NCBI GenBank assembly: GCA_016699975.1
Contig: CP064994.1
Coordinates: forward strand, 917,874-981,873
Direction of reading: 5' to 3'
Length of the DNA: 64,000 nucleotides
Source: Candidatus Moraniibacteriota bacterium
GTDB taxonomy: Bacteria > Patescibacteriota > Minisyncoccia > Moranbacterales > UBA1568
Shown: positions 1,324-56,500 of the stretch, piece by piece
How the letters are laid out: each line of letters starts with the position of its first letter
Position numbering within the stretch: the first letter of the stretch is position 1
The notes under the pieces: generated by a model
What the model was told of the DNA's origin: nothing
Databases searched by the model: none
Seen by the model: only the letters and a program-made list of their open reading frames with translations
Program-made: the position numbers and the translations under genes

Positions 1324-2832
1324 TTACTCCAAGAAGAGTTCATTAAAATGCTCAATATGTTTTTTGAGAAGCGCCTCGCCTTCTTCGTCGAGCGCTTTTC
1401 GTTCACGAATGAGAGAGAGGATATCATCGCCATCCCGCTCCAAATATTCGAGAAATCCTTCCTCCCAACGAGCAATTTTTTCGATGATGATTTCATCGAG
1501 GAACCCGCGGGTGAGCGCATAGAGCACTGCCACTTCTTTTTCGACAGAGAGCGGCGCGTACTGTTTCTGTTTCAAAATCTCAACGCCACGCTTTCCGCGG
1601 TTTATCTGCTCGCGCGTTTTCTCGTCGAGATCGGAACCGAATTGCGCGAAAGCTTCGAGCTCTCGAAACTGCGCGAGATCGAGGCGAAGCGTCCCAGCTA
1701 CTTGCTTCATCGCTTTGATCTGCGCAGAACTTCCAACACGCGACACCGAAAGTCCCACATTGAGTGCGGGACGAATTCCTTTGTAGAAAAGATCTGACTC
1801 CAAATAAATTTGCCCGTCGGTAATCGAGATTACATTGGTGGGAATGTAGGCCGAGACATCGCCCGCTTGGGTTTCGATAATGGGAAGCGCGGTAATGGAG
1901 CCGCCACCCGCTTCTTTCGAAAGTTTTGCGCTCCGCTCAAGAAGACGCGAGTGAAGATAAAAGACGTCTCCCGGATATGCCTCGCGTCCCGGCGGGCGAC
2001 GCAAGATGAGTGAAATCTGCCGATACGATGCCGCGTGTTTCGAGAGATCGTCATAGACGACGAGCGCGTGTTTCCCTGCTTCCAGGAAGTGCTCCGCCAT
2101 CGCGCACCCGGCGTAGGGCGCAAGAAACGAGAGAGCCGCCGGCTCGGAAGCGCCCGCCACAACAACCGTCGTGTACTCCATGGCCCCGCCTTTTTCCAAC
2201 TCGGAGACGATGCGCGCCACCTTCGATTCTTTTTGACCAATCGCCACGTAGAAACAAAGAACATTCTGACCTTTCTGATTGAGAATGGTGTCGATCGCAA
2301 CCGCGGTCTTCCCGGTCTGCCGGTCCCCGATAATGAGCTCTCGCTGACCGCGGCCGATCGGAATAAGGGCGTCGATTGCTTTGATACCCGTCTGAAGCGG
2401 CTCCTTCGGAGACTCCCGGAGCATCACACCGGGCGCCACACGCTCGACCGATCGGGAGCCTTCGCTCTCGATCCCTCCCTTGCCGTCAATCGGTTCCCCG
2501 AGCACGTTCACAACGCGGCCAATGACTGCTTTGCCAACCGGAACCGAGAGAATTTTTCCTGTCGGCCGAACAATTCCGCCTTCAGCGATTGATCCTGCTT
2601 CGCCGAGAAGAATGATACCCGCAAGATCTTCCTCGAGATTCAAGGCAACTCCGAAAGTGCCGTTGTCAAATTCGACCATTTCGCCCGCCGCCACTTCGGA
2701 CAGTCCCGATACCCGCGCAACACCATCGCCAATTTCGAGTACCACTCCCGTTTGCTCGCGCTTTTCGGTCATCTCGAATTGCTCGATTCGCCGCCGAATT
2801 TCTTCCGCCATTGAATGTACGTTCTGTGTCAT
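1324..2832 (-). CDS. atpA: F0F1 ATP synthase alpha subunit
   Basis: Internal Met of the 633-aa ORF: [20 protein letters not shown]…[20 protein letters not shown] (Walker A)…[20 protein letters not shown]. About 503 aa of typical alpha. The 131 codons upstream in the same frame belong to the delta gene. Confidence 0.9.
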
Positions 2833-3323
2833 AGAAACATCGAAAATAAAACTCTGAATGAATCTCTGCCCACCGATACCAAAGTAAAGTCGCCAAAAAA
2901 TTCCGGAAAAGAAACAATTACGATTCTTTTTCAAAAATCGCGAAAGCTGGCGAAGCCTCCCGCCCATACTTGCGTCGAACGTTTCGTTTTCTGTTTGAAA
3001 GACAGCTCCGCCAAGAATGTCCGGCCGGAGTCGCGCTTTGAGCGCGATTTGATTCTCGCCGAAAATACGCTTCCCTTCATCAAGAACCGCTTCGAGCTCC
3101 GTCTCCGAAAGTTTTTTCGAAGAGAGCACTTCCACCGATCGCACGCCCGATCGCTCTTTTTCCAATCGCTCGAGGGCCCGAAGAATAGTGTCCACATCGC
3201 GCCTTCGACCATCCTTCCGAAGCAAAAAAGAAATCGATCAATTCGAATACGGCGCTCCGAAGGACTCGCGTCAACGAGAGCGGCGTATACTCCTTCCGCA
3301 TATTGTCTTGGCGTCATGCGCAT
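2833..3323 (-). CDS. atpH: F0F1 ATP synthase delta (OSCP) subunit, with apparent frame discontinuities
   Basis: N-terminus [32 protein letters not shown] (delta-like ARPYA motif) begins at 3323 in one frame. The delta C-terminal domain (…[25 protein letters not shown]) lies in another frame from about 3225. The switch sits at a T6/A6 run (3222-3228). No stop codon separates it from atpA in that frame. Confidence 0.5.
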
Positions 3324-6343: not shown

Positions 6344-8605
6344 ATGAAGCACTTGTCAAAAACATTTTTTCGCCACCTCGTTCTTTCTCGTTCCTTCCAA
6401 TGGGCGGGGGTTGTTTTTCTCCTGATCATCCTCTCTGGCACTTTTTTGCACTATCGAGGAAACGCTGACACCATGATAAACGCGCCGACCGTGACAAATG
6501 ACACGCTCACCGAAGGCCTCGTTGGCCACTGGACATTCGACGGAAATGAAACCCAAGGCACCGTCGTCGTCGACCGATCGGGAAATGGAAACAACGGAAC
6601 CAGAGTCGGCGCTCCACAAAACACTGAAGGCCGTTTCGGGCAGGCGCTTCGATTCAATGGAACAAGCAATTTCGTTTCGATACCCAATACTCCTTCCCTC
6701 AGACCAACTACTGCCATCACCGTTTCGGCGTGGATCAAAACTCTTCCAAAAAATTTGTACCCGTTTATCGTGAGCAAAAAATACGACACTGACTTCGAAT
6801 CTTATGGACTGAGCGACTTTACAGATGTCGGAACCAATATCGGTTTTTGCATCAAGTGGGGCGCCATGGGAAACGAGTATACTTGCTCCGGGGTCGCAAG
6901 CGAATCATTGGGATTCTGGAACGATAGTTGGGTCCACGTCGTCGGAACGTATGACAAATCTTTCCTCCGGATCTATGTAAACGGGGGAGAAGTGGGAAGC
7001 GGAACACCTGAAACTCGAGATATTTTTTACGGCACTTCTCCCGACAATATTTTTATCGGATCCTTTGACGCTGCCAAGGGATTTTTTTCCGGAAGCATTG
7101 ATGATGTGCGTATCTATAATCGCGCGCTCCCCCCCGAAGACATCTTCACTCTCTCCCAGAGAGGAAAACACCTCATTCAAGCTGCTCCCGAGAATTCCCT
7201 TTCCCAAGGAATCCTCGGCTACTGGAAATTCGATGAAGGAGCAGGTACAGGAAGTGTCTCCGACGCAAGCGGGAACGCCACGGCGCTTACCATGTATTCT
7301 TTCGCGAATACCGATTGGACCACAGGAAAAGTTGGCCCCTTCTCGCTCAATTTTGATGGAGTGTCGAAACGACTTGCTGCAAGTGACCCTCCGATTCTTG
7401 ATTTCGATGCCTCAAAAAGCTTCACCCTCACGGGATGGTTTTATCGAAATAGCCTATCGGCGACCCATACCATTCTCGCCAAACGAAACGGCACTGCAAA
7501 TACCGACGACGGCTATATACTCTCCATAAATGGAGCGACCGACCAACTCATTTTCGAAGCATCCGATAATGCCGATACGGATGAGTATCAGATCGCCAGC
7601 GCTTCTCTTTTCAACGTTCCCGGATGGAATCACTTCGCCATTGTCTGGGACGACGACAGTCCACTCGAAACGACAATGTACACAAATGGCCAAAAAGAAG
7701 CGGCGTCAAAAACCGGAACCCTCTCGAGCATCGGGAACCTCTCAAACGCACTCGCCTTTACTATCGGCGCGGAAAGCGACGGTGGAAATCCTTTCGACGG
7801 GAGCCTCGATGACATTCGCGTTTACGGATACCCACTGTCCACAGAAGAAATCGGGACACTTTTTCGAACTGGCGCTCCCGCGGAACCCGTCGATACCCAG
7901 GTTATCGGTCACTGGACATTCGACGGGCCGGACATTCAAGGAACAAGAGCTCTCGACCGATCAAAAAATTCGCTTCAAGGAACACTCACGAACGGTCCTC
8001 AACCCGCAATCGGAAGACTCGGCCAAGCGCTGCGATTCGACGGCGTCGATGATTTCGTCTCTCTCGGAGACACGCCTCTTTTCACGCTTGATCCGTCGAA
8101 AAATTATACCTGGTCCATGTGGATACGAGGATCCGATTACTCTGGAACTTTCCAAAATATTCTGTGGTCTCAAGTGCAGGATACAAATAACGCGCTCTTG
8201 GTTTCGGCGCGTTCCATTTCGGGACATCCAGATTTTGGATCGGTCACCGATGGACTCTTTGTAACGTGGACCAATGCCGGATCCATTTGTTCTGGCGAAG
8301 CGACAACCGATTCTGTGTTGGAGAAAAACGCGTGGACACACATCGTGCTTCAGTATGAGGGAACCCTCCCTGCGGGTGCGCGCTTTTCCATCTGGGTAAA
8401 TAGTGTCGACCGCTCGAAAAATACGAATGCCTCACACTGCTCCCCGGGGAGCATCAACCCAACAGTCACCGCGCTCGGGAACAACGGGACTCTCCCGAGC
8501 CAGGGATTTGAGGGAAGTCTCGACGATATACGCCTGTACGATCGGCTTCTTACGGCAGAAGAAATACACACTCTTTTCCACTCTGGCACTCTTTCCCGGA
8601 ATTAA
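6344..8605 (+). CDS. Secreted or surface protein with three LamG (concanavalin-A-like lectin/glucanase, Laminin_G_3) domains
   Basis: 753 aa. N-terminal hydrophobic signal (VVFLLIILSGTFL). Three roughly 200-aa units each end in the Laminin_G_3 signature: FSGSIDDVRIYNRALPPEDIFTL, FDGSLDDIRVYGYPLSTEEIGTLF, FEGSLDDIRLYDRLLTAEEIHTLF. Each unit is preceded by GxWxFDG motifs. Confidence 0.8.
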   Translation: MKHLSKTFFRHLVLSRSFQWAGVVFLLIILSGTFLHYRGNADTMINAPTVTNDTLTEGLVGHWTFDGNETQGTVVVDRSGNGNNGTRVGAPQNTEGRFGQALRFNGTSNFVSIPNTPSLRPTTAITVSAWIKTLPKNLYPFIVSKKYDTDFESYGLSDFTDVGTNIGFCIKWGAMGNEYTCSGVASESLGFWNDSWVHVVGTYDKSFLRIYVNGGEVGSGTPETRDIFYGTSPDNIFIGSFDAAKGFFSGSIDDVRIYNRALPPEDIFTLSQRGKHLIQAAPENSLSQGILGYWKFDEGAGTGSVSDASGNATALTMYSFANTDWTTGKVGPFSLNFDGVSKRLAASDPPILDFDASKSFTLTGWFYRNSLSATHTILAKRNGTANTDDGYILSINGATDQLIFEASDNADTDEYQIASASLFNVPGWNHFAIVWDDDSPLETTMYTNGQKEAASKTGTLSSIGNLSNALAFTIGAESDGGNPFDGSLDDIRVYGYPLSTEEIGTLFRTGAPAEPVDTQVIGHWTFDGPDIQGTRALDRSKNSLQGTLTNGPQPAIGRLGQALRFDGVDDFVSLGDTPLFTLDPSKNYTWSMWIRGSDYSGTFQNILWSQVQDTNNALLVSARSISGHPDFGSVTDGLFVTWTNAGSICSGEATTDSVLEKNAWTHIVLQYEGTLPAGARFSIWVNSVDRSKNTNASHCSPGSINPTVTALGNNGTLPSQGFEGSLDDIRLYDRLLTAEEIHTLFHSGTLSRN

Positions 8606-9138: not shown

Positions 9139-12100
9139 CTACCGCTCTTCCACCAGCACCCAATCGAAGGGAATTTCTTCAGAAGTTTCGGTACGCACTT
9201 CTACTGTAAAGCTTTTTCCCTCATCAACTTTGGTAACCGCAAGCGGCGCGCTCGTCGCTTTTTTTGGCGTCACAAAAATTCTCGCTCCATTCGAAACCGC
9301 TTTCGTGGAAACAACCACTTTCTTTCCGTCCCGAGCGGCAACCTCCGGATCGTCCATGGCATCTCCCGTCCGATCATCCTTCCCGTCAGGAATGTCGTTT
9401 CCGGATTCATCGGTTTTCCCTTTGACATCAATGGCTTTCGCAAACAAAGTTGCCGCACCAATCGATGGCGCCTCGTCATCACTCACGGTAACCACAAGCG
9501 ATTCCGCTCGCAGTTCCTTCACACGCAGAACGCCTTTCGAGAGATCGAGATTTCCATCGGCGTCTTTCACGAGGACACTCCCCAAAGAAAGCGTATTGTA
9601 AAAATCAAGGAGAGTCTCATTCGAACTCTGCAGAAGTGACACGGCCGATTCAAGCGTTTCCAACTTTTTGGTGACTCCCGACATATCGGCAGTGTGTTGT
9701 TCGAATGTCGCAAGCCGCATCTTCGTTTCGGCATCCGATTGAGCAACGAGCGAGAAGCGCTCCTCGACCGACGTCTCCAGATCGGCAAGTGTGGTCGCGT
9801 GCCCGTCGGTCGAGAGCGTCACGCTTTCGAGCGTCGAGGCCAGATCCGACACACGACGATCCTCTTCTTGAACAGCCTTCACGAGAACCGGGATAAATTC
9901 CGCCTTCGAAATTCCCAGGTAACCGTTCTCGCCGGTCGAAATAACATTGGGATACACCTCTTGCACTTCTTGCGCAATAAAACCGGTGAGACGCGGACCG
10001 TCCGCATGGCTTACGCGATTAAAATCAACAACGCGTAAACGATTGATCACACCGAGTCCCTCAGTCAGGGTATTCTCGATATTCGTTTTGGTGCGAATAT
10101 CGGACGGATCGGTAATCGCAAATGTTCCCGCCGTATTCGCAATGTATCCGATTTGGGTGCCGTCACCATCGAGCGCATTTAAATAGTACGTCGTTCCACT
10201 TCCGTCATCCGCTCCGGCCTGCACTACCATGCCGTATCGATTGGCGTTGTTGCCATCGTTTCCAACACGCATTGCGTACCCGCTTGCTCGGTCGTCGCTC
10301 ACATCGAGACGAGAGCTCGGCGTCGTCGTTCCAATACCAACACCAAGCGAACCGACGCCGCCCGACCCATCAGCCACTCCATACACTGTAAGCACGGGAT
10401 TGGTGTCGAGTTGCGCCGAGTAACTGAGAACGGTATTCGAAGGCACGGCGGGTGTCACGGCCATATCAATCCATGAAAGGATACCCCCGTCTTCGGGAAA
10501 GTACTGCGCGCCCAGACGAGCGTCCGCGATTGTTGTGGTCCCCGTCGAAGTGATCGCAAAATCAGCCGAGGATCCAAGTGTATTTCCGGCATCAATCTTA
10601 AACGTATCCGCATCACTCGTATCGACACCGAGAGAAAATTTCACGCCCAGTGTCGTCGCGCTCGTGCGAAACTGAAGGAGAGGATCATGCGTCGTCGTCG
10701 CCGAAGTAATGGTAAGCACTTCATCGTTTGCGGAGGCTCCGTAGAGTTCAAGCGGCGATACAGGACTCGCGGTACCAATTCCGACCGCCCCTGCCCCATT
10801 TACCACAAAGGGGGTCGTGTCGCCAATCACATCATCGATGCGAAAAGCAAGATTGTTCGTGCCTGTTGCCGCATGCTCGATAAGGAGCGAGGTGTTCGCG
10901 TTTTGTACTCCGGTATTTTTGAGTGCAAGAAGAGAGCCTGTATTGGCGGCAGCGCTTCCCGAAAGCGAGAGGGTTGCAAGACTTCCTGAAAGTCCCGTCG
11001 AAGAAGAGAGGATTGAGAGTCCCGAGCCACTCGTGAGTCCATTCACGCTCATGGCAAGTGCGGTTTCCGTATCGATTACGTTGGCAGTAATATTGACGGC
11101 GTTCGCTGCATTCGACGCTTGAACAATATCAAGCGCCGAAACTGGTGCAGTCGCATTGAGCTGATTCAGCCCGAACAAAAATCCGGAATCCGTTCCCCCA
11201 GAAGCAGGATTTTCAAACACTACAGAATCGTCGAGCGAGGAAAGTCGGAGCGTCGCATTCGAACCGTCAGCATCAAAATCATAGGCTCTTTGGAGCGGTG
11301 TTTCATATCCGGCACACAGACTTCCTGATGTACAAATTGTCCCGCTCTCATTGGGGAGCGTCCAGGTGCGCGAAGCAGTCAGATTCGCACGAGTAAGTTG
11401 TCCACGTCCATCTGGATCATACCAATAGAGCGAGGTTCCCTGTGTCGAAGTCGATGTAAACGCCTCTCCTGCCGAAACATCGCCGATCGCGGTTATGTCT
11501 CCAATTCCTCCCCCGCCTGACGAGACCCATGAGAATCCGCCCGTCCCCGAATTAAATGTGAGAATCTGCCCATCAAGCGGAGCGCCTGATGCCCCAAGAT
11601 CAATACCAAGCACGCTTCCATTTTCAATTTCCGCGGAATCAATACTCACGCCAAGGGAGGATTCGAGATTAATAGTTCCCACGCCATTTGCGATCGTGAC
11701 GCTCCCCGCCAAAGAGGTAAGGGTTCCGAGAGTAGGCGCGCCGGAAGCTATCCCTATAAGAAGCTGCCCGTTTCCCAGAATGCCAAGCGACTGGATCGCA
11801 CCTGCTGCGTTCCCATAGAGTATGCCACCCGACGGAAACGAAGCATTTCCTGTTCCACCATGCGAAACTGAAAGTGCAGGACTATCAACTGACCAAACTC
11901 CGGATGACAGAAATGGTACGCCGGTGAATGAGGAGGTATCGATTCCTGTTCCACCATGCGAAACTGAAAGTGCGGGACTATCAACTGACCAAACTCCGGA
12001 TGACAGAAATGGTACGCCAGTGAATGAGGAGGTATCGATTCCTGTTCCACCATGCGAAACTGAAAGTGCGGGACTATCAACTGACCAAACTCCGGATGAC

Positions 12101-13437
12101 AGAAATGGTACGCCAGTGAATGAGGAGGTATCGATTCCTGTTCCACCATGCGAAACTGAAAGTGCGGGACTATCAACTGACCAAACTCCGGATGACAGAA
12201 ATGGTACGCCAGTGAATGAGGAGGTATCGATTCCTGTTCCACCATGCGAAACTGAAAGTGCAGGACTATCAACTGACCAAACTCCGGATGACAGAAATGG
12301 TACGCCAGTGAATGAGGAGGTATCGATTCCTGTTCCACCTCGAACCGCGGAAAGATAATTTTCTCCGGAAAGTGTGGTGCCGTTTATCCAATACGAAACC
12401 TGGCCCGGCGATCCGGAACCGTTCACCATTCCCGCAAATGCCGAAGTGAAAGAAGAGAACGTCGTCCCATCGTCCGAGAATTGCCACTCACCAATTCCTC
12501 CGTCATAGCGAAGCGCGGGGGCATTCGAAGCACTTGAGATTGACAAGCGAAACTGATTCGAGTTTATTGCAATCCCGGAACCAATGGTAAAAACCGTTGA
12601 GTTCGTCGCCGTATCGGTATTCTGCGTGTGTCCATTTCCTGAAATTGGTGCCACACGATCAAGGAGAGACTGAAAGTCATCGGAAAGATTCGAGAGATCG
12701 CCCGAGAGTGTATCGACATTCTTCGAGAGTGCAGAAACCTCTTTGACCGACGACGTAAAGTCTTTGTTGTCAGCAAGAAGAAGCGTTTTCCCTTTGGTAC
12801 CGGTTGGGAGTTGCTCGATCCCAAGTTTCCCTGCGACGCCATACGTCACAATATCTCCCGCATTGTTCCCGATCGCTCTCCCCCTTAAGAACTGCGAATT
12901 CACCGCATTCGGAAACTTTCCCAATTTTTTCCGCGGCACCATTTCCGCATCCGATTCCACGCGAATGCCCAGAAAATAGTTTCCTCCTTCGAAAGTAAAA
13001 TTATTCGGAAGTGGTGTGCTCTTTCCCAAAAAAGTCTCGAGCACACCGTTTTTTACTTCTACAATCTGTGTTTCTTCCCAGACCCGACTCGCACGATCGG
13101 CATCGGAAGGGTATGGATCCACTTGTGTGCGGTCGGATCGGTAGAGACTAAAGCGCACCGAGTAGGAAGCGTTCGGAACCATCTCTCCGTCTCCCTGGAG
13201 AAGCACCGCCGAAACTGAAATACTGCCGGTATCCGAAGAAGATGCACTTCCTCCAGAAACTTCTTGCGCAAAAACAGCCCGGGGAGCAAGTCCGCAGGCA
13301 AGAAATCCTGTCAGTACGACTACCGAAAGAAGCGAAATGAAAAAATATTTCCTTTCTTTGTTTTGAAAACAATGCATCGAGATTGACACGAAAAAGAAGT
13401 ACCAAATCGAACTTCTCCTCGTCTCCGTCGAGAGCAT
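9139..13437 (-). CDS. Giant (1432 aa) surface protein with 5x32-aa tandem repeats and a C-proximal peptidase S74 / tail-spike intramolecular-chaperone auto-processing domain
   Basis: N-terminal signal/TM (LLSVVVLTGFLACGLAPRAVFAQE). Long Gly/Ser/Thr-rich beta-rich body with GTGIDTSSFTGVPFLSSGVWSVDSPALSVSHG x5. Near the C-terminus, DPSDIRTKTNIENT…LRVVDFNRV…GFIAQEVQEVYPNVIS…AEFIPVLVKAVQE matches the S74 chaperone-of-endosialidase domain. It is followed by about 250 aa of coiled-coil and charged tail. Confidence 0.8.
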   Translation of the reverse strand: MLSTETRRSSIWYFFFVSISMHCFQNKERKYFFISLLSVVVLTGFLACGLAPRAVFAQEVSGGSASSSDTGSISVSAVLLQGDGEMVPNASYSVRFSLYRSDRTQVDPYPSDADRASRVWEETQIVEVKNGVLETFLGKSTPLPNNFTFEGGNYFLGIRVESDAEMVPRKKLGKFPNAVNSQFLRGRAIGNNAGDIVTYGVAGKLGIEQLPTGTKGKTLLLADNKDFTSSVKEVSALSKNVDTLSGDLSNLSDDFQSLLDRVAPISGNGHTQNTDTATNSTVFTIGSGIAINSNQFRLSISSASNAPALRYDGGIGEWQFSDDGTTFSSFTSAFAGMVNGSGSPGQVSYWINGTTLSGENYLSAVRGGTGIDTSSFTGVPFLSSGVWSVDSPALSVSHGGTGIDTSSFTGVPFLSSGVWSVDSPALSVSHGGTGIDTSSFTGVPFLSSGVWSVDSPALSVSHGGTGIDTSSFTGVPFLSSGVWSVDSPALSVSHGGTGIDTSSFTGVPFLSSGVWSVDSPALSVSHGGTGNASFPSGGILYGNAAGAIQSLGILGNGQLLIGIASGAPTLGTLTSLAGSVTIANGVGTINLESSLGVSIDSAEIENGSVLGIDLGASGAPLDGQILTFNSGTGGFSWVSSGGGGIGDITAIGDVSAGEAFTSTSTQGTSLYWYDPDGRGQLTRANLTASRTWTLPNESGTICTSGSLCAGYETPLQRAYDFDADGSNATLRLSSLDDSVVFENPASGGTDSGFLFGLNQLNATAPVSALDIVQASNAANAVNITANVIDTETALAMSVNGLTSGSGLSILSSSTGLSGSLATLSLSGSAAANTGSLLALKNTGVQNANTSLLIEHAATGTNNLAFRIDDVIGDTTPFVVNGAGAVGIGTASPVSPLELYGASANDEVLTITSATTTHDPLLQFRTSATTLGVKFSLGVDTSDADTFKIDAGNTLGSSADFAITSTGTTTIADARLGAQYFPEDGGILSWIDMAVTPAVPSNTVLSYSAQLDTNPVLTVYGVADGSGGVGSLGVGIGTTTPSSRLDVSDDRASGYAMRVGNDGNNANRYGMVVQAGADDGSGTTYYLNALDGDGTQIGYIANTAGTFAITDPSDIRTKTNIENTLTEGLGVINRLRVVDFNRVSHADGPRLTGFIAQEVQEVYPNVISTGENGYLGISKAEFIPVLVKAVQEEDRRVSDLASTLESVTLSTDGHATTLADLETSVEERFSLVAQSDAETKMRLATFEQHTADMSGVTKKLETLESAVSLLQSSNETLLDFYNTLSLGSVLVKDADGNLDLSKGVLRVKELRAESLVVTVSDDEAPSIGAATLFAKAIDVKGKTDESGNDIPDGKDDRTGDAMDDPEVAARDGKKVVVSTKAVSNGARIFVTPKKATSAPLAVTKVDEGKSFTVEVRTETSEEIPFDWVLVEER
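11855..12334. repeat. Five near-identical tandem copies of a 96-bp (32-codon) repeat inside the giant surface-protein gene
   Basis: The unit ccaccatgcgaaactgaaagtgc[a/g]ggactatcaactgaccaaactccggatgacagaaatggtacgcc[a/g]gtgaatgaggaggtatcgattcctgtt recurs at 11855, 11951, 12047, 12143 and 12239. Copies differ at only one or two positions. The overlapping shadow ORFs 11754..12338 and 11822..12358 are artefacts of it. Confidence 0.9.
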
Positions 13438-21544: not shown

Positions 21545-22909
21545 TTAGGATTTCTTCATCTTTCTGCGAATAAAGGCGGGGATTTCAAGATCCTCCTCTT
21601 CCGAGCTCGCCTCTTTCGTTTCACCTCGAAGCGAGAGAGGTCGAGGCGCAATCTTTTCCTCGATAATCATTTTCGTTTCAAGTTTTCGAGTGGGAAACGT
21701 GATTTCTTCTCGCATCGCTCCCGCATCCTGGTTCGTGAGAGATGGGGACAATTCTTGGTGAGCCGGTGGCTGAAACGAAGAGGTTTCGGAGCGCTCCAAG
21801 TATTCTTCGCGCGGCGAAACGGGAGAAGTGTCCCGCGAAGTCACATTCCGCACTTCCCGGACATCGCGGTCATCGACCGTTTTCTCGGGAAGTGTGCCTG
21901 GGCGCGAGGAAGCAAGTCTCGTCAACTTTCGGAATGGATCTTCTACTATTCGACCCCCATCAAATCCCGTCGCCACCACGGTAATTTGCACTTCTCCTTT
22001 TCTTACTTGATCATCCGACACCGCCCCAAAGATCACTTTGGCATTGGGATCGATATTCTCGGTAATAATATTTGCCGCCTCGTTGATCTCGAGCATCGTG
22101 ACATCGCTCGAACCCGAAATATTAAAGAGCACCCCACGAGCACCATCGATCGAGAGATCGAGAAGCGGACTATTGATAGCAGCCTTTGCCGCTTCGACAG
22201 CACGGTTCTCTCCCGAGGCAACCCCAATCCCCATAAGCGCACTCCCACTGTCTTCCATAATGGCCCGCACATCGGCGAAGTCGACATTCACGATTCCTGG
22301 CTTGGTGATAAGATCGGAAATTCCTTGTACGCCCTGGCGAAGCACATCGTCGACGATGCGAAACGCATTAATGAGTGTGGTTTTTCGGTCAATGATGGAA
22401 AGAAGCTTGTCATTTGGGATCGTGATGAGAGAATCCACTCGTTCCTGCATATTCTTCAGACCTTCCTCGGCAATCGCGCGTCGCTGCGCACCCTCAAAGG
22501 CAAACGGTTTCGTAACAACGCCAATCGTCAGTGCGCCAATTTCTTTGGCAGTTTCCGCTACGATAGGAGCAGCGCCCGTTCCGGTTCCACCCCCCAACCC
22601 GCACGTCACAAAAACCATGTCAGCCCCTTTCAAAACTTCCTGAATCTCATCGCGGTTTTCTTCGGAAGCCTGACGCCCAATCTCCGGATTCATTCCCGCG
22701 CCGAGTCCTTTCGTGAGATTCTTGCCAATATGAATTTTCTCACTGGCGCGAGAATGATGGAGCGCTTGAGCATCGGTATTGACGACGACAAACTCCACTC
22801 CTTTAATCTTCGCTTCGATCATGCGCGAGATAGCATTCCCTCCTGATCCTCCCACTCCTACCACTTTTATCTTCGCAAATGTTTCTATTGCCGGTTTTAT
22901 TTCAGCCAT
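21545..22909 (-). CDS. ftsZ: Cell division GTPase FtsZ
   Basis: …[18 protein letters not shown]…[21 protein letters not shown]… (tubulin signature GGGTGTG)…NVDFADV… and the C-terminal conserved peptide [11 protein letters not shown]. Confidence 0.95.
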
Positions 22910-23263
22910 AACAGAAGAGAGATAACGCGATACTTTAGATACTGTATGAGAACTCGCGAAAGCAGTACCAAGAAAAACCGGCCCGAACGCCTCACGAGAA
23001 CGGATCTCTGAAAGAGCGAGCGGAAACCGGTTTGTATTTTCTTTTCTGAGATTTGATACCTTCGAATTGCGCGAGCTGCATCAAAACTTTTTTCAGTTTA
23101 CCAGAATTCACGCGGAACACCAAATAAACCGTTTAACTGCCTTTTTGATTCCTCTTTTTCCCGGTACCAAATTTTTTCGAAGGATCGATTTCTCCAATCA
23201 AGAGAGCAAAAAAATCACTCAGAGAAAGATCGCTTCTTTGTCCAATCCTTTTCCCTGATCGAT

Positions 23264-24496
23264 CTATGATCCGTATTTTTGAAGCGTCCAATAATTCTGA
23301 TCGCAACTGCTGTCTCGACATCCGCACTTCCATTCATTTCCCTCAAAACGACAGACGAAGGCAAGCACAAATCCCGAAGTTCCGCCGGAAATAGGCGGAA
23401 GACCCTCGGAGAAAGCCTCTCCAGAATACCATCCTGGATTATTTACAGCCTCTTCTCCCGAAAAAGAAATTGTCTGCCAGCTCCCGTTCGAGAAAACAAA
23501 TCCCGTGTTGTAAACCGACGTATTGAGAGTGGAATTTCCCGCGACCGCTCTCTTTCCTTCAGGACGGCACTCTACGCGAAGAAGCGGCTCCTGATTTTCC
23601 GAAAAAGGATTAAGTGGCGCCCCATATCCTTCGGGAACATCTGCAAAACTCGTAATAAGCGAACAATCCGTCGACGCTCCGCCCAGTCGCTTCGCAATAC
23701 ATGGGTCTGATCGCACACCTTCGGAAGGAGTGCATGTCCAAGAGCTCGAACTCCCTCCCAACGGGAAAGCTGGAGAAGCAGGTTGCGGAGATCCTGTTGC
23801 ACAGAGATCGCCAAGAAAAGCATTTTCCGTTTCCGAATAGATGCGAGCGGCGCTGCCACACACTCCCATGGGATCCGGCGACCCAAGAACGGGAGCCGAA
23901 CAAGAAACATTTTTTCCACTTTCTCCGAGACAAAGCCAAACCCATTCGTTTCCAGACGCGGAGACCGGACTTGCCGTCCCTCTCGCACACAGATTCGAGG
24001 AAGGGCGAGAAGCAATCGAAGTTCCATCCGCGGGTCCGCACGCTGGCAAAACAACAAGAGACGGAACTCGTTCACTCGCCATACGAACCCCTACCGTTTC
24101 CTCTTCCCCTTCAAACTGGCCAGTCACCTCGATCAGCGCAACCTTGGAAGTCGCGTCGCTACAAGAAAGGCGTCTTTCCGAAGCGTCTCGAAAGATAGCA
24201 ATAAAGCGTCCTGAAGAATTTTTTCCTCGAATTTCTTTGTCGACACAAGATCCTCCGGAAGCCGAGGTAAGTGAGCGGATCGTTCCTCGTTTCCGACGAA
24301 CTTCGGCAGAGAGCGCATCAAGCGCAATATGCGCGGACTTGAGAGCTGTCTTCTCTCCGATCGACTGGGCAGAAACAGAAAAAGGAGGCCAAATGAAAGA
24401 AAGAAGCACCGCAACCACACCAACCGAGTAAAAACGAAAACGCTTCAAGAGAAAAGGCATAAGTGAAGGCAACAAAAGAAAGAGAAAAATTGCCAA
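23264..24496 (-). CDS. Secreted cysteine-rich protein (410 aa), short paralog sharing a C-terminal domain with ORF 24809..27001
   Basis: Signal peptide (VGVVAVLLSFIWPPFSVSAQS). Motif CGSAARIYSE…LCATGSP…WTCTP…C. The C-terminal about 110 aa (…PEGYGAPLNP…VAGNSTLNTSVYNTGFV…GFVLAFVCRFEGNEWKCGCRDSSCDQNYWTLQKYGS) align with the C-terminus of the 730-aa neighbour. Confidence 0.7.
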   Translation of the reverse strand: MAIFLFLLLPSLMPFLLKRFRFYSVGVVAVLLSFIWPPFSVSAQSIGEKTALKSAHIALDALSAEVRRKRGTIRSLTSASGGSCVDKEIRGKNSSGRFIAIFRDASERRLSCSDATSKVALIEVTGQFEGEEETVGVRMASERVPSLVVLPACGPADGTSIASRPSSNLCARGTASPVSASGNEWVWLCLGESGKNVSCSAPVLGSPDPMGVCGSAARIYSETENAFLGDLCATGSPQPASPAFPLGGSSSSWTCTPSEGVRSDPCIAKRLGGASTDCSLITSFADVPEGYGAPLNPFSENQEPLLRVECRPEGKRAVAGNSTLNTSVYNTGFVFSNGSWQTISFSGEEAVNNPGWYSGEAFSEGLPPISGGTSGFVLAFVCRFEGNEWKCGCRDSSCDQNYWTLQKYGS

Positions 24497-24501
24497 ATAA
24501 A

Positions 24502-24735
24502 CTAGCGCGACGGAAGGAGGGGAGCAGGAGGCACGTCATTCGAAGGAGTTGCTTCCCCTTCCATGAAAGGAGGGTTCGTTGGAAGAGGCGGAAGCGGAGG
24601 AGGAGTTACAGGCATTTGAGATGTTCGCGATTTCGAAGAAAAGCTCGCAAGAAGAAAGGCAATCACCACCACAATCGCGATTCCCAGCACAACAAGTACC
24701 GCTTTGCGGCGCGCCGTCAGTTCAGTAATATTCAT
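24502..24735 (-). CDS. Small single-pass membrane protein with a proline-rich tail (77 aa)
   Basis: MNITELTARRKAVLVVLGIAIVVVIAFLLASFS… (TM) followed by …PVTPPPLPPLPTNPPF…PPAPLLPSR. Occupies exactly the gap between the two Cys-rich paralogs. Confidence 0.4.
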   Translation of the reverse strand: MNITELTARRKAVLVVLGIAIVVVIAFLLASFSSKSRTSQMPVTPPPLPPLPTNPPFMEGEATPSNDVPPAPLLPSR

Positions 24736-24808
24736 ATGTTTTATTTTTACGAACTAAATCAATTCACTCAAAAAAATCATCAAAAAATATCCTGTATACT
24801 GTTTCGCA

Positions 24809-27001
24809 CTACTTTTTTCCGTACGCCTGAATAGTCCAATAATTTTGGGAGCAGTCGCGATCTCGACATCCACACTTCCATTCGCTTCCCTCATATTGAC
24901 AGATAAAGGCAAGAACATAGTTTTGCCCGGATGAAGGTGCGGCGGGAAGTTCTGCAACTGCCGAACCACGGAACCAGCCAGCATTTCCCGAATCCGCTCT
25001 TCCCGAAAAGTCTATCTTGCTCCATTCGCCGTTTTGCGAAACAAAACCAGTTTTGTACACAAAGGTTGCTTGCGAACCGGCAACTGCCATTCCCCCTTGA
25101 TCAGAGCAACGGACGGTCAGCGTTTCTTCATTCTGAGAGGAAAGCATATTGAAAGGACTCCCATATCCTTCCGGAATTGAGCTCTGCAAAGAAGTGTATC
25201 GAGCGCAGGAAGAAGGATTTTCTCCATTCGAATTCGGGAAAGTAGGATTTTGTCCTTCAACCGTTCCACGAGTAGCAGTGCAACTTTCCGAATCTTTGCC
25301 TCCCGTAATACCGGCACAGCGCCACTCTGAAGCAGCATTTATGCTTGGGAATGAAGGATTGACGGGGTCCGGCAATCCCGTGTAACAGAACGACCCCGAA
25401 AAAGTCGTCTCTCCATCAGAATAGTTCCTCGCGGCATTCCCGCAGGATCCACTCACTTTAATGACTTCTCCTTCGGCAATAGGGTTTGAAGGGCCAGTAT
25501 TTCCAGAAACATCCCACGCCATACAGGTATTCGTGCCACATGGCCACGTCCAGTGAGCACATCGTCCTCCTGAACCAGTGAGACCTGAACAATCAGTGCT
25601 ATGCGTCATGCCAATTCCCGTAGTAATCGTTTGTCCCGAACAGAGGTTTTGAGTAGGTTGGGAGGTAAAGTCCTTCCCATGAGAGGTTCCACACTGAGAT
25701 CCAGGAGAAGGTGGGTCAGTGGGAACACAGCACTTCTTTCCCATGGTGCAGTCCGCTTTGACAAACTGCTGAGCTCCGTATCGACATGTCGCGGTTTCAT
25801 TGATACATTGTCCGCCCACTTGGGAGCAGCTTGTTACCTGAGAAGGATTACAACCGATTCCGGAACAACCTCCCTCTGGGGGAGAGGGGTTCGTTGGGGA
25901 ATTCGTACCATTTTTCACACACGTATCCGACTGAGCCGTAAAACCTTCTTTACAAGCGAAACACTTTCCTTGTCCCCCACACGTCCAATCCCATCCAGCA
26001 AATTCTCCATTTACGAATAAAGCATACGTATTTGTCCCCGAAGGTTCGGTTCCCGGAATTCCTGAAACTGCCCCTGAAGTGCAGCTGTATCGTTGGTCAG
26101 GACCGTTTTTCGGAAATGTCTTTCCATTATTGGAACCACAGACACCACTTGTTGGCGTAGGATTTCCGGAAGCGTTCCGTATGCACACATAGTTCCCACT
26201 CGTTACAGAATTGCACGTATATCCTGAAAGGGGTCGCATGGGTCCTCTTCCCGACTCGCATCCAGAGCCCCATTGACCATCCATTTGAAGCATTCCGTAG
26301 CGCCAACTGGCATTACAACCTCCCGTGATGCCGTCAGAAGAACCAACTTTAGAACACACGTAGTAAGCGTTATTTTCATAGGTAGAGACTTTTCCGCATT
26401 GGTAGCCCGATGGAGGCGTCGGATACCCCTCTTTTCCACCACCACACCCCACTCCCCATTCGTCATAGGTCCGGCGGACGGCGCTCGTCGTAGATTCGAT
26501 GCGGCATCCACCTGCTATATCTCCCGACGAGTTCGATTTGGAACAGATATAATATTGCGTCAGACCATCAGTAGTATCGGTTCCCACTATTCCGCATGCA
26601 TATCCTGCTGCCGCGCGAACATCGGGTCCGCTCCCTTCAAACCCCTTTCCCCAACTAGAAGAAAGCTGCATGATGCGATATTTGGATGTCTTTGTATAGC
26701 CTCCGGTCACACCGCTTGCGGCATCGGATCGCACACACCAATAATTTGCATTCTTAACGTTTTCTGTTTGAGGAACAGAACTCACTCGACCACAAACATA
26801 CCCCGAAGGAGGCTTGGGATAAGCATCATTGCCACAGCCAACCCCCCAATTCCCGACATTTTTGGGATTTCTCAACATCTGAATGGAGCACCCTCCCTCC
26901 ACATTCGCAAGCGCATGATCTGAAACCAAGAAAATTCCGATCGAGATCGCAAGCAAAGACCCCAGTAAAAACAAACGGACAGAGTTTCTTTGTGTATTCA
27001 T
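24809..27001 (-). CDS. Secreted cysteine-rich repeat protein (730 aa), long paralog
   Basis: Signal peptide. Three N-terminal repeats: WGVGCGNDAYPKPPSGYVCG…, WGVGCGGGKEGYPTPPSGYQCG…, WGSGCESGRGPMRPLSGYTCN…. Three CGxxxG…LC/SC…W.C.G…C.A modules. Cys-knot-like stretch CSGIGCNPSQVTSCSQVGGQCINETATCRYG. C-terminal domain …VLAFICQYEGSEWKCGCRDRDCSQNYWTIQAYGKK is shared with the 410-aa paralog. Confidence 0.75.
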   Translation of the reverse strand: MNTQRNSVRLFLLGSLLAISIGIFLVSDHALANVEGGCSIQMLRNPKNVGNWGVGCGNDAYPKPPSGYVCGRVSSVPQTENVKNANYWCVRSDAASGVTGGYTKTSKYRIMQLSSSWGKGFEGSGPDVRAAAGYACGIVGTDTTDGLTQYYICSKSNSSGDIAGGCRIESTTSAVRRTYDEWGVGCGGGKEGYPTPPSGYQCGKVSTYENNAYYVCSKVGSSDGITGGCNASWRYGMLQMDGQWGSGCESGRGPMRPLSGYTCNSVTSGNYVCIRNASGNPTPTSGVCGSNNGKTFPKNGPDQRYSCTSGAVSGIPGTEPSGTNTYALFVNGEFAGWDWTCGGQGKCFACKEGFTAQSDTCVKNGTNSPTNPSPPEGGCSGIGCNPSQVTSCSQVGGQCINETATCRYGAQQFVKADCTMGKKCCVPTDPPSPGSQCGTSHGKDFTSQPTQNLCSGQTITTGIGMTHSTDCSGLTGSGGRCAHWTWPCGTNTCMAWDVSGNTGPSNPIAEGEVIKVSGSCGNAARNYSDGETTFSGSFCYTGLPDPVNPSFPSINAASEWRCAGITGGKDSESCTATRGTVEGQNPTFPNSNGENPSSCARYTSLQSSIPEGYGSPFNMLSSQNEETLTVRCSDQGGMAVAGSQATFVYKTGFVSQNGEWSKIDFSGRADSGNAGWFRGSAVAELPAAPSSGQNYVLAFICQYEGSEWKCGCRDRDCSQNYWTIQAYGKK

Positions 27002-27149
27002 AGGCGTACTTCCTCAAGAGGAACATCGTTACGATTTTTGAACGAGTAAATAATCACGATATAAATTTCAGATATCTTTTTTTAGTATATCACAAAGAGA
27101 ACATTTTTCGAGAAAAATTTTTCCTCACGCACTCTGATTCATTCTTCCC

Positions 27150-28397
27150 TTACGGCAAAAATTTTCCGAAGAGGCGCTTTGCTCGATCGAGGGTTTGTGA
27201 AATTCCTGTGGTCGCAAACCAAGAAGCACCCGACCGCTCATTTCCTCTGTTTGCTTCAGCCCACAAAACGAGACCAAGAACAGTTGCGAATTCCGGATCA
27301 TCCACCTGATCCAGAACTCCTCCCAACGGTTTCGGATAGCCAATATGAGCGGGGAGACGAAGCGTTTCCTTGGCAAGCTCAACGACGCCCGGAAGACGAG
27401 CGCCTCCGCCTGAGAGGACCACGCCACCCGGAAGAAGGCCCGAACGACCGATTTGTTTCAGCTCCGCATCGACAAATTGGAAGAGTTCTTCGAGGCGCGC
27501 TTCGATAATCTCGGCAATATGCCGACGCGACACTTCTCCTTCTTCTTTGCTGCTGATTGCAGCGAGATCGATATCTTCTTTCTTATCAATATCACGCGAC
27601 AGAGCGCTTCCGAAACGAACCTTCACTGCTTCCGCAACATCAATCGACGTTCTCAGTCCGATCGCGATATCATTCGTGATATGCCCCGCTCCAATCGGCA
27701 AAATTTTCACATGGAGGAGATCTCCTTCCTCAAAAACAGCAAGCGACGTCGTGTCAGCGCCGATATCGACAAGCACCGCTCCGAGCTCCCGCTCTCTCGA
27801 TCCAAGGACCGCTTCCGAAGCGGCAAGAGGCGAAACGACAAACTGTTCGAGTCCGATGCCCGCTTGTTCGAGCGCTCGGGAAATATTTTTCGTATGTTGC
27901 GCGGAATCACCAATAAGAAGCGCCGAGACTTCGAGCCGAACGCCATTCATGCCGAGGGGGTCCTTGATATTTTTTTCGTCATCAAGGCGGTAGTGTTTCG
28001 GAATAATGTGGAGGATCTCCTGATTCGGCGAAAGAGGTGCGGTGTGCCGCGCTTGCTCGAGGACTCGATTGATATCGTCATCGAGCACTTCCCCGTCGGC
28101 CTTCCCAACCGCAATCACGCCCGTCGCTTCCCGAAAAAAAACTTCGTGACCGCCAAGCGCAACAGAGACTCGCTCAATTTGAGCTCCCGCCATACTTTCA
28201 GCCCGCGAGATCGATTCCACTATGGAAGACACAGCGGCTTCGATATCGACGATAGAGCCGCGCCTCACGCCCAACGTGGGAACTACTCCCACCCCGACGA
28301 TACGCGGCGCTTCCCGCTCCTTTCCGGGAGAAACGACAACGGTTCGAATGGACCCCGATCCGATATCGAGACCGGTAATGAAATTTCCACGCTTCAT
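27150..28397 (-). CDS. ftsA: Cell division protein FtsA (actin-like ATPase)
   Basis: MKRGNFITGLDIGSGSIRTVVV… (phosphate-1 motif)…VLVDIGADTTSLAVF…ILPIGAGHITNDIA… Stop overlaps the dgkA start region. Confidence 0.9.
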   Translation of the reverse strand: MKRGNFITGLDIGSGSIRTVVVSPGKEREAPRIVGVGVVPTLGVRRGSIVDIEAAVSSIVESISRAESMAGAQIERVSVALGGHEVFFREATGVIAVGKADGEVLDDDINRVLEQARHTAPLSPNQEILHIIPKHYRLDDEKNIKDPLGMNGVRLEVSALLIGDSAQHTKNISRALEQAGIGLEQFVVSPLAASEAVLGSRERELGAVLVDIGADTTSLAVFEEGDLLHVKILPIGAGHITNDIAIGLRTSIDVAEAVKVRFGSALSRDIDKKEDIDLAAISSKEEGEVSRRHIAEIIEARLEELFQFVDAELKQIGRSGLLPGGVVLSGGGARLPGVVELAKETLRLPAHIGYPKPLGGVLDQVDDPEFATVLGLVLWAEANRGNERSGASWFATTGISQTLDRAKRLFGKFLP

Positions 28398-53585: not shown

Positions 53586-56500
53586 CTACACTCCCCGTTG
53601 TTTCCACCAGAAGAAGAAGAGGGAAAGAACGGAAACGGGAAGCAGAATGAGAAGGGTGAATGAGGTAAAGCTCTTGAAAGGATTCCACCAGGGAGCCGCT
53701 TCTTCTATGGGAGCGGTTTCGGAAGAAACAGGAACAGGAGGAGTTGTTTCGGTCTCGGTCATACGCTCGGGAGCTTTCTCCATTTCTTGTTTCGACTCAT
53801 TTGGTGGTGTGCTCACACTTTCGGCCGCACGACGGAGTCGTTCTTCGGCTTCACGATCCGCTGTCGAAGACATATCGGTTTTTGAAGGAAGTGTCTGAGA
53901 GACAGAGGGCGAAGAAGTAAGAGAAGAGGCAGGCTTTGTTGGAGACGAGGTTTTCTCGGAAGGAAGGGTCTTCATGCTCGGCGCAGCGAGCGTCTTTACG
54001 AAATGAATACGGCTTGAATCGGTGTTGTCATTCCCATCTTTTGCCTTGACGCGGAAGTAGTAGAGGGTGTTTGGCTTGAGGCCCGTCAAGATGACTCGGT
54101 GATCTTTGTCTTTTTGGTTTTCCTCTCGCTTCTCGAGGAGCATCTTCGTGGTTCCGTAGCGTACCACACCTGTTGTGGGATAATCCGTGTCCCACGTAAT
54201 CGTGATGGTGTCTTTGGTGGCATTCGACTTCACATGATGAACGTTCAGATTTCGACTCTCGTCTTCGTCATCATCGTCATTACTCTTTGTGGGAGAGACG
54301 GCCGGAGCAGGAGCGGGGGTTTGTCCGGGTGTGGCAATCGCAAAGCTAATGAAAGAATCGGTTGTGTTGACGTTCCCGCCTGTATCGGTGCAACGAACGT
54401 AATAGGTGTAGCTCTGTCCGTTCATGAGACCCGTTACCACCTGCGAATGACTCGTGGTGCCGGTGGTTGTGAAGGTGTTGGGGAGAGAGGCATAGGCCTG
54501 TGAAGTCGTACCATACTTACAGGTCGCGTTCATATTGGTCGAAAGAGAGAGGGTCGCCTGAGTTGTCCCAGCAGCGAGGGTGCCCGATGGAAGCAAGTTG
54601 GAGCGAACAGGCGCGGCTCCTGCGGTCACGGCTTTCGAGAAGGAGCGCTGTGCTGTTCCCGTGTTCCCTGAGGGGTCAGTGTCTCTGAGGTAGAGGGTGA
54701 AGGTTGCCCCTTCCGCAATACTGCCCCACCCGGTCATTTGGGAAAGGGTAGTGGAGCCACTGGTGCAGGAGACCCAGTCGGTATTGTTTACGGAGCACTG
54801 CGGAGCAGTCGGTTCAGAGTTGGTGAAGGTCACCGTGTCGGAGGAAGAGACCGTGGCGCCGGAAGCAGGAGCAGAGATGGTGAGGACAGGAGCCGTCGTA
54901 TCTGCCGGGTTCGCTACCGAAAAAGAAACCGTGAAGTCAGTGGTGTTTGCATTGCCTGCCGTATCCTGACAGCGGATGTGATAGGTGTAGCTTTGTCCAT
55001 TACTGAGACCCGAAATGGTTTGTGAGTGGCTGGTGCTGTTTGTGGTTGTGAAGGTGTTCGGGAGAGACGCGTAGGCTTGATCGGTGGTGCCGTACTTACA
55101 GGTTGCGGTTTCATTGGTGGTAAGCGTCATCGTGGTACTTGTGGTTCCAGCGGTGAGGCTTCCTGAGGGAGCGGGGTTGGAGCGAGTCGGCACTGTTGCG
55201 TCAATGGTAAACGTGTCTGTTGCTGCATTGGCATTTGTGACGACATTGCCGGAGCTATCTGTTGCTCGGACATACATGGTATGGGAGCCGTCAGTGAGGG
55301 CGGCACTCACGGTACAGGTAAAGGCTTCCGTTCCTGCATTAAAGGTGCCGTCATTGGGAGTACAGGCATTCCAGGTGCCTGCGGTGCTGTCCATCTGGTA
55401 CTGGACAGAAGAGATGGTACTCCCCGCGTCCGTTGCGGAGCCTGTGAGCGCCGGGGTGTTGTCTGTGTTGGGATCAGGAGAGAGTGCGGTCAGGGTGAGG
55501 ACAGGAGCCGTCGTATCTGCCGGGTTCGCTACTGAAAAAGAAACCGTGAAGTCAGTGGTGTTTGCATTGCCTGCCGTATCCTGACAGCGGATGTGATAGG
55601 TGTAGCTTTGTCCATTACTGAGACCCGAAATGGTTTGTGAGTGGCTGGTGCTGTTTGTGGTTGTGAAGGTGTTCGGGAGAGACGCGTAGGCTTGATCGGT
55701 GGTGCCGTACTTACAGGTTGCGGTTTCATTGGTAGTAAGCGTCATCGTGGTACTTGTGGTTCCAGCGGTGAGGCTTCCTGAGGGAGCGGGGTTGGAGCGA
55801 ACGGGAGGGGTGGTGTCGGTCACTGCTTTTGTGAGATTTGCAACTTGTGCTGTTCCCGTGTTCCCTGAGGGGTCAGTGTCTCTGAGGTAGAGGGTGAAGG
55901 AGAATCCTTCGGGAAGCGCGCTCCACCCGGTCATTTGGGAAAGGGTAGTGGAGCCACTGGTGCAGGAGACCCAGTCGGTATTGTTTACGGAGCACTGCGG
56001 AGCAGTCGGTTCAGAGTTGGTGAAGGTCACAACTTGCGAACCGTTTACCGTCGATCCTGTTGTTGGTGCCGTCACGGAGAGCGAAGGAGCGGTAGTGTCT
56101 ATGCTAAAAGTATCGGAGGATTCGCTGCCGGGAGGGGTCGTTTTGGAATTTGAGTCTGTTGCGCGGACATACATGGTGTGGGATCCATTAGAGAGAGCAG
56201 CACTTACTGTACAGGTGAAGGCTTCCGTCGCCCCGTCGAAGGTACCGTCATTGGGAGTACAGGCATTCCAAGTTCCTGCGGTACTGTCGATTTGGTACTC
56301 AACAGACACAAGAGCGCTTCCGACATCGGTAACAGATCCAGTAAGTGCGGGGGTTGAGTCGTTATTTGGGTCAGGAGTGAGTGCGGTGAGCGTGATGGTG
56401 GGAGCTGCCTCATTATAGGATGTGACAAAAGAATTGGTTGTCGCAGAACTCGTTTTGGAATCCGTACCAGGGCCAGGATTGAAGTCAACCGTGGCACCGT

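Follow-up and report, generated by a model that had tools for sequence, protein, structure and literature searches.

An undescribed six-cysteine domain of secreted Patescibacteria proteins and its candidate role as a binding module

Introduction

How Patescibacteria (CPR bacteria) attach to their hosts and feed on them is poorly understood, and the majority of the proteins on their surface carry no annotation. In a 64-kb window of a Candidatus Moraniibacteriota chromosome, the whole stretch of DNA analysed here, two neighbouring genes encode secreted cysteine-rich proteins that we term pA and pB. A preliminary description made from the letters of this DNA had singled out the C-termini of the two proteins as a novel domain shared by both paralogs. 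This proposal raises three questions: whether the common tail is a genuine domain, whether it belongs to any family already described, and what such a domain might do outside the cell.

Results and discussion

Two secreted cysteine-rich proteins encoded between ftsA and ftsZ

The pA gene (23264..24496, minus strand) specifies a secreted protein with 16 cysteines, 410 aa long when read from a TTG codon. Its true start is likely the ATG at 24460, which yields a 398 aa protein equal to QQS20845.1 and carrying the leader MPFLLKRF...FSVSA/QS (24368-24460, minus). The pB gene (24809..27001, minus) encodes a secreted cysteine-rich repeat protein of 730 aa with 44 cysteines, whose leader spans residues 1-32 (...DHALA/NV; 26906-27001, minus). 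This protein is near-identical to QQS20847.1, with which it falls into a common 90% cluster. Both database entries come from a Candidatus Moraniibacteriota (Moranbacteria, CPR) MAG and are annotated as 'hypothetical protein'. Scans of pA and pB against Pfam-A and NCBIfam produced nothing above sub-threshold noise (DUF6069, 13.9 bits; Myotoxin, 13.9 bits; SecE, 16.6 bits), and the Pfam-A scan revealed no enzyme domain in either protein.

Between pB and pA lies a 77 aa ORF (24502..24735, minus) with one transmembrane helix and a proline-rich tail, which is annotated as a gene in near-identical contigs. The equivalent position in a related locus, L001, holds an 82 aa ORF that is weakly similar to it in the transmembrane part (32% identity over 41 aa, E=3e-6). 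The gene order in the near-identical contigs is YqeY, DAGK, FtsA, pB, the 77 aa ORF, pA and FtsZ. In the window, ftsA (27150-28397) flanks the pB side and ftsZ (21545-22909) the pA side, so that pB, the 77 aa ORF and pA interrupt what is usually an ftsA-ftsZ pair (21545-28397). A link to cell division, which this position might suggest, was rejected because the flanking genes are not retained in relatives: L001 has infA downstream, and a second relative, L002, adjoins ribonucleotide reductase genes. Scans for promoters and terminators around the pA and pB genes gave results at or below shuffle expectation.

The shared C-terminal region is about 133 residues long

The two C-termini align clearly, as had been claimed for them: BLASTP of pA against pB returns E=8e-53 over 327 columns, and the last 133 residues are 51% identical, with 68 invariant columns. 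The remainder of the two proteins is less well conserved, again in agreement with the initial reading, since the aligned part upstream is gap-rich and only ~28% identical and the N-terminal parts cannot be aligned. A conserved cysteine opens the common region in each protein (pA C278, nt 23665; pB C599, nt 25207). On this basis the domain extends over 23267..23665 in pA (minus; residues 278-410 of the 410 aa ORF; stop codon at 23264-23266) and over 24812..25207 in pB (minus; residues 599-730; stop codon at 24809-24811). The length of ~110 aa given earlier was therefore too short, and the ranges assigned at that time (23264-23600 and 24809-25150) clip ~20 residues of the domain, including the PEGYG motif at 23621-23635 in pA and 25160-25174 in pB. 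The motifs PEGYG[AS]P.N, NG.W..I.FSG, GW..G.A and VLAF.C..EG.EWKCGCRD..C.QNYWT.Q.YG are all found in both proteins; VAG...Y.TGFV is also present, but only if a two-residue indel is allowed.

How old is this similarity? The tails match each other in tblastn with E=1e-38, and a tblastn search disclosed no third copy of the domain in the 64-kb window. Their nucleotide identity is 55%, falling to 40% at third codon positions, and gene conversion between pA and pB was rejected on these values. So low an identity at third positions indicates instead that the similarity is old and has been maintained by selection. Judged from the sequences, the duplication that gave rise to pA and pB is thus an old one whose products appear to be under purifying selection. 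Both paralog types also lie side by side in L001, and the duplication therefore predates the divergence of that relative.

The domain defines a large family

We used a profile built from the two tails for an exhaustive HMM search of 1.84 billion cluster representatives (50% identity). At least 999 representatives match at E<=1e-3, 603 of them at E<=1e-10 and 14 at E<=1e-30, and the top two matches are pA (P0001, E=1e-73) and pB (P0002) themselves. A profile search of this kind had been proposed in the preliminary description. Because at least 999 representatives carry the domain, it can be called novel only in the sense of being undescribed; that part of the original claim stands, whereas the domain is by no means confined to the two paralogs. 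Word-indexed searches were far less productive, as the pB tail found no match and a 60-sequence profile recovered only 26 short proteins, all of them unnamed or labelled 'hypothetical protein'.

The six cysteines are present in 146 of the best 150 members. Among these 150, W63, W79, W125 and Q128 are invariant and W111 occurs in at least 90%. The family signature is WKCGCRDxxCxxxW.xQ, and the consensus begins C....S....VP.GYGAPYN..S...ELL..V.C....A....G.G...QYIY..GY.W.NG.W..I...G......W..G.A and continues with ...L......NYV.AY.C.W.G..WKCGCRD..C....WQLQ.F. Numbered by the pB tail, the features that define a member are C2, C35, C104, C113, C115, C120, W63, W79, W111, W125 and Q128 in an extracellular unit of ~130 aa, and pA and pB possess all of them.

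The two proteins belong to a divergent subfamily in which the domain is always C-terminal, is preceded by cysteine-rich units, and has W-T-[IL]-Q-x-Y instead of W-Q-L-Q-x-F. Within it, pB groups with P0003, P0004, P0006 and P0009 (63-65% identity) and pA with P0005 and P0010 (51-54% identity).

These data bear on the simplest objection, namely that there is no real domain and that the similarity is due to chance or simply marks the stretch that two recently duplicated paralogs have kept best. The genes are near neighbours in matching orientation and their products have other repeats in common, as this objection would predict. However, third codon positions are near saturation, the fold prediction described below is confident, and the ~130 aa unit recurs with sharp boundaries in hundreds of unrelated architectures. 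We have rejected this explanation and assign it a negligible probability.

The domain matches no family in Pfam, NCBIfam or the PDB

To place the family, 60 isolated domains were compared with Pfam-A (2025 copy) and NCBIfam (release 20, 2026) by hmmscan. The domain did not reach the gathering threshold of any family in either collection, and no family was hit by more than two members (best E 0.0095 and 0.0029, respectively). The family profile likewise had no match among all PDB sequences (2026; best E 0.4). The preliminary description had staked its claim of novelty on the failure of a profile search to lead to a Pfam domain with an annotated function, and the search indeed led to none. Text searches of the literature found nothing on a WKCGCRD-type motif and nothing relevant on Patescibacteria in combination with cysteine-rich proteins and polysaccharide lyases. 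The WKCGCRD family is therefore undescribed relative to Pfam, NCBIfam, the PDB and the searchable literature.

A predicted Ig-like sandwich with six invariant cysteines

The fold was predicted with AlphaFold, as had also been proposed at the outset. A 60-sequence alignment headed by the pB tail gave an all-beta sandwich with a pLDDT of 95.7 and a pTM of 0.90, as expected for a discrete, independently folding module; a 2-sequence alignment gave a pLDDT of 38. The nearest solved folds in Foldseek are Ig-like sandwiches, among them NEAT, DsbD-N and CBM21 structures (TM 0.27-0.47), although none qualifies as a close match at E<1e-3 and TM>0.5. The model thus describes the domain as an Ig-like beta-sandwich of ~130 aa.

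The near-invariance of all six cysteines (146/150) fits three disulfide bonds, which probably lock the domain. In the predicted structure, strands 103-107 and 110-113 form a hairpin that sets C104 opposite C113. The preliminary description had read CGC as a disulfide motif; the hairpin suggests that its two cysteines probably pair with different partners and not with each other. The bonds we predict are C104-C113 and, for C2 and C35, one bond each to either C115 or C120. About 10 of the 150 members (P0041, P0054, P0140 and others; for example ...YNCSNLISNAWCVG...) carry two additional cysteines that occur together in a loop region, which suggests an optional fourth disulfide.

The best Foldseek match is a NEAT domain (Listeria Hbp2 N2, PDB 4myp). 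Like the WKCGCRD domain, it is an Ig-like sandwich of ~120 aa that monoderm bacteria carry on proteins they secrete or display at the surface, but the similarity is loose (E=4.9e-3, TM 0.42-0.46, 7% identity, rmsd 5-10 A) and the domain has no match to the Pfam NEAT model. Moreover, NEAT domains, which bind heme through a YXXXY motif, lack disulfides, whereas the WKCGCRD domain probably has three.

A second group of structures, the N-terminal domain of DsbD (PDB 1l6p and 3pfu), is also Ig-like and likewise has a close pair of cysteines near a C-terminal hairpin. These structures occupy Foldseek ranks 3-5, 8 and 9 (E 0.015-0.03) and bring to mind a redox function, in which a reactive disulfide at the CGC (CXC) motif or at C115-x4-C120, on an Ig-like scaffold as in DsbD-N, would aid the oxidative folding of cysteine-rich exoproteins. 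The CGC and neighbouring cysteines are invariant, and pA, pB and the partners with MopE repeats (see below) are rich in cysteine, all of which such a function would accommodate. Against it, hhalign with E. coli DsbD-N gives a probability of 0.24% over 25 columns with the cysteines unaligned, values on which homology to DsbD-N was rejected, and the structural matches have a TM of at most 0.47 (0.37-0.47) and an E above 1e-3. Six invariant cysteines also suit three structural disulfides, most of the partner enzymes are not cysteine-rich, and fusion to a lyase or glycosidase would make no sense for a foldase. DsbD-N is in addition part of a membrane electron-transfer protein, whereas the WKCGCRD domain resides in secreted enzymes. 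A thiol-disulfide exchange role is consequently very unlikely.

Terminal placement and the company of polysaccharide-degrading enzymes

The position of the domain within proteins is highly restricted. In 95 of the 150 members (63%) it directly follows a hydrophobic leader, with a median start at residue 36; in 51 it forms the extreme C-terminus, and in 4 it is internal. Almost all of the 150 proteins have a single copy. P0026, P0031, P0041, P0086 and P0140 consist of a signal peptide and the domain only.

Such a distribution recalls the C-terminal domain of type IX secretion substrates in Bacteroidota (Por_Secre_tail), likewise a small, terminal beta-sandwich that is found on many secreted hydrolases and is lineage-restricted with many copies per genome. 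However, the type IX domain must lie at the extreme C-terminus, whereas the 95 copies noted above are N-terminal, behind a Sec leader. The WKCGCRD domain matches neither the Por_Secre_tail nor the TIGR04183 model (Pfam, NCBIfam). To our knowledge, Patescibacteria have neither an outer membrane nor a type IX secretion system.

The partner domains were surveyed twice. In the first survey, 71 long members carry Beta_helix (9), MopE (7), Polysacc_lyase (4), Chondroitinase B (3), Pel9A (3), Hint (3), GH26 (2), apiosidase (2), peptidase M64 (2) and PL14 (2) domains, and further partners include GH114, GH18, peptidases S8 and M23, esterases, a nucleoside hydrolase and others. A second set, 64 proteins taken from genome loci, has fn3 (9), TIG (5), Polysacc_lyase (3), Beta_helix (3), S8 (2), GH18 (2) and LamG (2) domains, together with malectin, sulfatase, polysaccharide deacetylase, GH71 and M23. 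Partners of this kind are the typical company of carbohydrate-binding modules (CBMs).

The comparison with CBMs can be taken further. Modules such as CBM21 (PDB 7qf7) are likewise non-catalytic beta-sandwiches of ~130 aa with conserved aromatic residues that may also occur alone, and they too are attached, by way of fn3, TIG or PKD spacers, to polysaccharide lyases, glycoside hydrolases, sulfatases and deacetylases. If the model is right, the WKCGCRD domain has one of the properties by which a CBM is defined, that of a contiguous, independently folding and probably non-catalytic module within carbohydrate-active enzymes. For the CAZy families that have a Pfam model or a solved structure, the resemblance stops short of sequence, as the domain matches neither Pfam CBM models nor CBM chains in the PDB, and the Foldseek TM to CBM21 is only 0.27. 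Six invariant cysteines that probably form three disulfides, the WKCGCRD signature, the almost exclusively terminal position and the inclusion of peptidases among the partners further distinguish the domain from CBMs. It is best seen as an undescribed family within a known class, the beta-sandwich binding modules that secreted enzymes carry as accessories.

A binding module is the leading candidate function

Partners and terminal position make a role in binding or anchoring the most reasonable inference. Our leading proposal, held with middling confidence, is a non-catalytic, CBM- or lectin-like module that binds a surface or a sugar. Among the catalytic partners, polysaccharide lyases, beta-helix proteins and glycosidases are found most often, which makes a glycan or cell-surface polymer the most likely ligand; both the act of binding and the glycan nature of the ligand we infer from domain architecture. 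Residues K112, R116, D117, N21 and Q128, along with the many aromatics, would suit the binding of sugars, acidic ones possibly among them. The existence of stand-alone forms indicates that the module works by itself, as would be expected of a lectin more than of an anchor dependent on its cargo. Under this proposal the domain would keep its fused partner in contact with a glycan outside the cell or with a polymer of a cell surface. Other CPR proteins would present polysaccharide lyases, glycosidases, sulfatases or peptidases in this way, whereas in pA and pB the cargo would be cysteine-rich repeat stalks. These two would be secreted surface or adhesin-type proteins of the Moraniibacteriota cell whose C-terminal tip binds.

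Several observations run counter to this proposal. Those partners that are not carbohydrate-active (peptidases, esterases, nucleoside hydrolase, Hint, MopE) equally fit a general module for surface retention or docking, and a position so nearly confined to the protein ends is better known from anchors and dockerins than from CBMs. Foldseek finds no close likeness to a solved CBM, and pA and pB themselves have no enzyme domain.

The main rival is accordingly a self-surface anchor, through which the domain would bind an envelope polymer of the producing cell (peptidoglycan, a secondary cell-wall polymer or the S-layer) and keep secreted enzymes and cysteine-rich proteins on the CPR cell. In monoderm bacteria SLH, LysM and CWB domains retain proteins in this manner. 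Placement at either end of the protein (146/150), very diverse cargo that includes peptidases and esterases, and a lineage-restricted distribution with many copies per genome would all be natural for an anchor. Sortase, SLH and LysM are also missing from the partner families listed, so that another retention device would be needed. In contrast, the proteins made up of a signal peptide and the domain have nothing to anchor, and the single copy per protein differs from classical wall anchors, which are usually tandem repeats. The domain is furthermore found in MAGs labelled, as deposited, as Bdellovibrionales and Proteobacteria, whose envelopes are expected to differ. We regard retention on the producer's own envelope as possible but rather improbable, and docking and redox functions as less likely still.

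Distribution and genomic neighbourhood

A 10-sequence alignment with an invariant WKCGCRD was used to scan genomes, an approach that covers only members having WKCGCRDxxC. It located 61 loci, nearly all in Patescibacteria MAGs, whose labels include Saccharibacteria, Falkow-, Giovannoni-, Morani-, Paceibacterota, Peregrini-, Peri-, Niyogi-, Ryan- and Kaiserbacteria. The few others lie in MAGs deposited under the labels Bdellovibrionales, Gamma- or Deltaproteobacteria, Geminicoccaceae or Rhodospirillales. The domain occurs more than once in many genomes, and at least 15 loci have two to four domain genes in tandem, a pattern that suggests local expansion by duplication. Examples of tandem genes are L011, L019, L046, L009, L020, L025, L029, L030, L038 and L002; L019 has three consecutive genes of the C-terminal type, and L046 has four domain genes within 12 kb.

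No neighbouring gene family recurs beside the domain genes in the 61 loci, and a conserved partner or operon gene was rejected on this account. The same result weighs on a further alternative, that the domain is a dockerin-like or oligomerization module that fastens enzymes to a scaffold, to a pilus or to each other. A single terminal copy per protein, diverse cargo and tandem clusters of domain genes would suit docking, and Ig-like sandwiches commonly mediate contacts between proteins. However, no recurrent partner or scaffold gene lies beside the domain genes in the 61 loci, no protein with multiple receptor-like repeats was found to co-vary with the domain, and stand-alone copies exist. We consider docking unlikely.

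A narrower form of the binding proposal concerns the epibiont or predator lifestyle. Here the domain would be a recognition module that reads a glycan or envelope polymer of the host or prey. In CPR bacteria, and in predators of the Bdellovibrio type, it would steer lytic or depolymerizing enzymes, and with them the adhesins pA and pB, towards the partner cell; tandem, fast-diverging paralogs would encode host range. We view this version as speculative, and about as improbable as the self-envelope anchor.

What the domain means for CPR biology depends on which of these functions it serves. Across many CPR lineages the domain marks cysteine-rich surface proteins as well as secreted polysaccharide lyases, glycosidases, sulfatases and peptidases. 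Should it serve as a handle that binds glycans or surfaces, it would constitute a new CBM-like family, a practical marker of the exoproteome used for attack and attachment, and, through a domain of 130 aa, a direct experimental entry point. If it is a mere structural spacer or generic anchor, it would be a routine new domain of unknown function. The domain is useful for annotating CPR exoproteomes and would be conceptually surprising only if it determines host recognition.

Cysteine-rich units upstream of the domain

The cysteine-rich regions that precede the domain in pA and pB contain repeats of their own. In pA, two 4-Cys units of the form CG..G...C..G...W.W.C...C (23699..24040, minus; residues 153-199 and 213-266) lie ahead of the domain, and two matching units in pB (25280..25693, minus; residues 437-493 and 520-574) align with them. 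Units of this type are ~50-60 aa long, follow the fuller pattern CG..(N)G......P...LC..G........W.W.C.....C, and occur two to three times in pA and pB, those of pB being at 25961-26140, 25523-25693 and 25280-25444 (minus). Up to four repeats are present in the orthologues P0003, P0008 and P0009. Whole-protein scans gave no Pfam or NCBIfam match for these units, which look like a second undescribed family of extracellular repeats.

Two other segments of pB stand out. Residues 36-286 (26144-26896, minus) comprise four tandem cysteine-containing repeats of ~63 aa each, with the pattern ...W-G-x-G-C...P-x-S-G-Y-x-C-G-x-V......Y-[YW]-x-C......S-G-[IV]-[TA]-G-G; nothing in Pfam matches these repeats, and pA lacks a counterpart. 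Residues 379-425 (25727-25867, minus) form a compact 8-Cys segment, knottin- or defensin-like in appearance (CSGIGCNPSQVTSCSQVGGQCINETATCRYGAQQFVKADCTMGKKCC), whose similarities to crotamine/myotoxin (E 0.069) and to a tick carboxypeptidase inhibitor (E 0.078) are sub-threshold. An akin segment, C..GG.C...C..GE......DC......CC, is found in P0003 and P0008.

Other features of the window

Elsewhere the window consists of ordinary chromosomal genes (ATP synthase, rpoB, rpoC, gyrB and ftsK) with a few large surface proteins. Putative surface proteins include a 1432 aa ORF (9139-13437, minus) with a Peptidase_S74 domain, the intramolecular chaperone of endosialidases, as in tail-fibre-like proteins; a 753 aa ORF (6344-8605, plus) with three LamG domains; and a 1310 aa ORF (53586-57518, minus) with Big_13 and fn3 domains. 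In a 633 aa ORF (1324-3225, minus), residues 2-96 match the C-terminal half of the ATP synthase delta subunit (OSCP profile 76-170) and are followed, in one frame, by a complete alpha subunit. The arrangement represents a delta-alpha fusion or else arises from the ORF start having been set mechanically.
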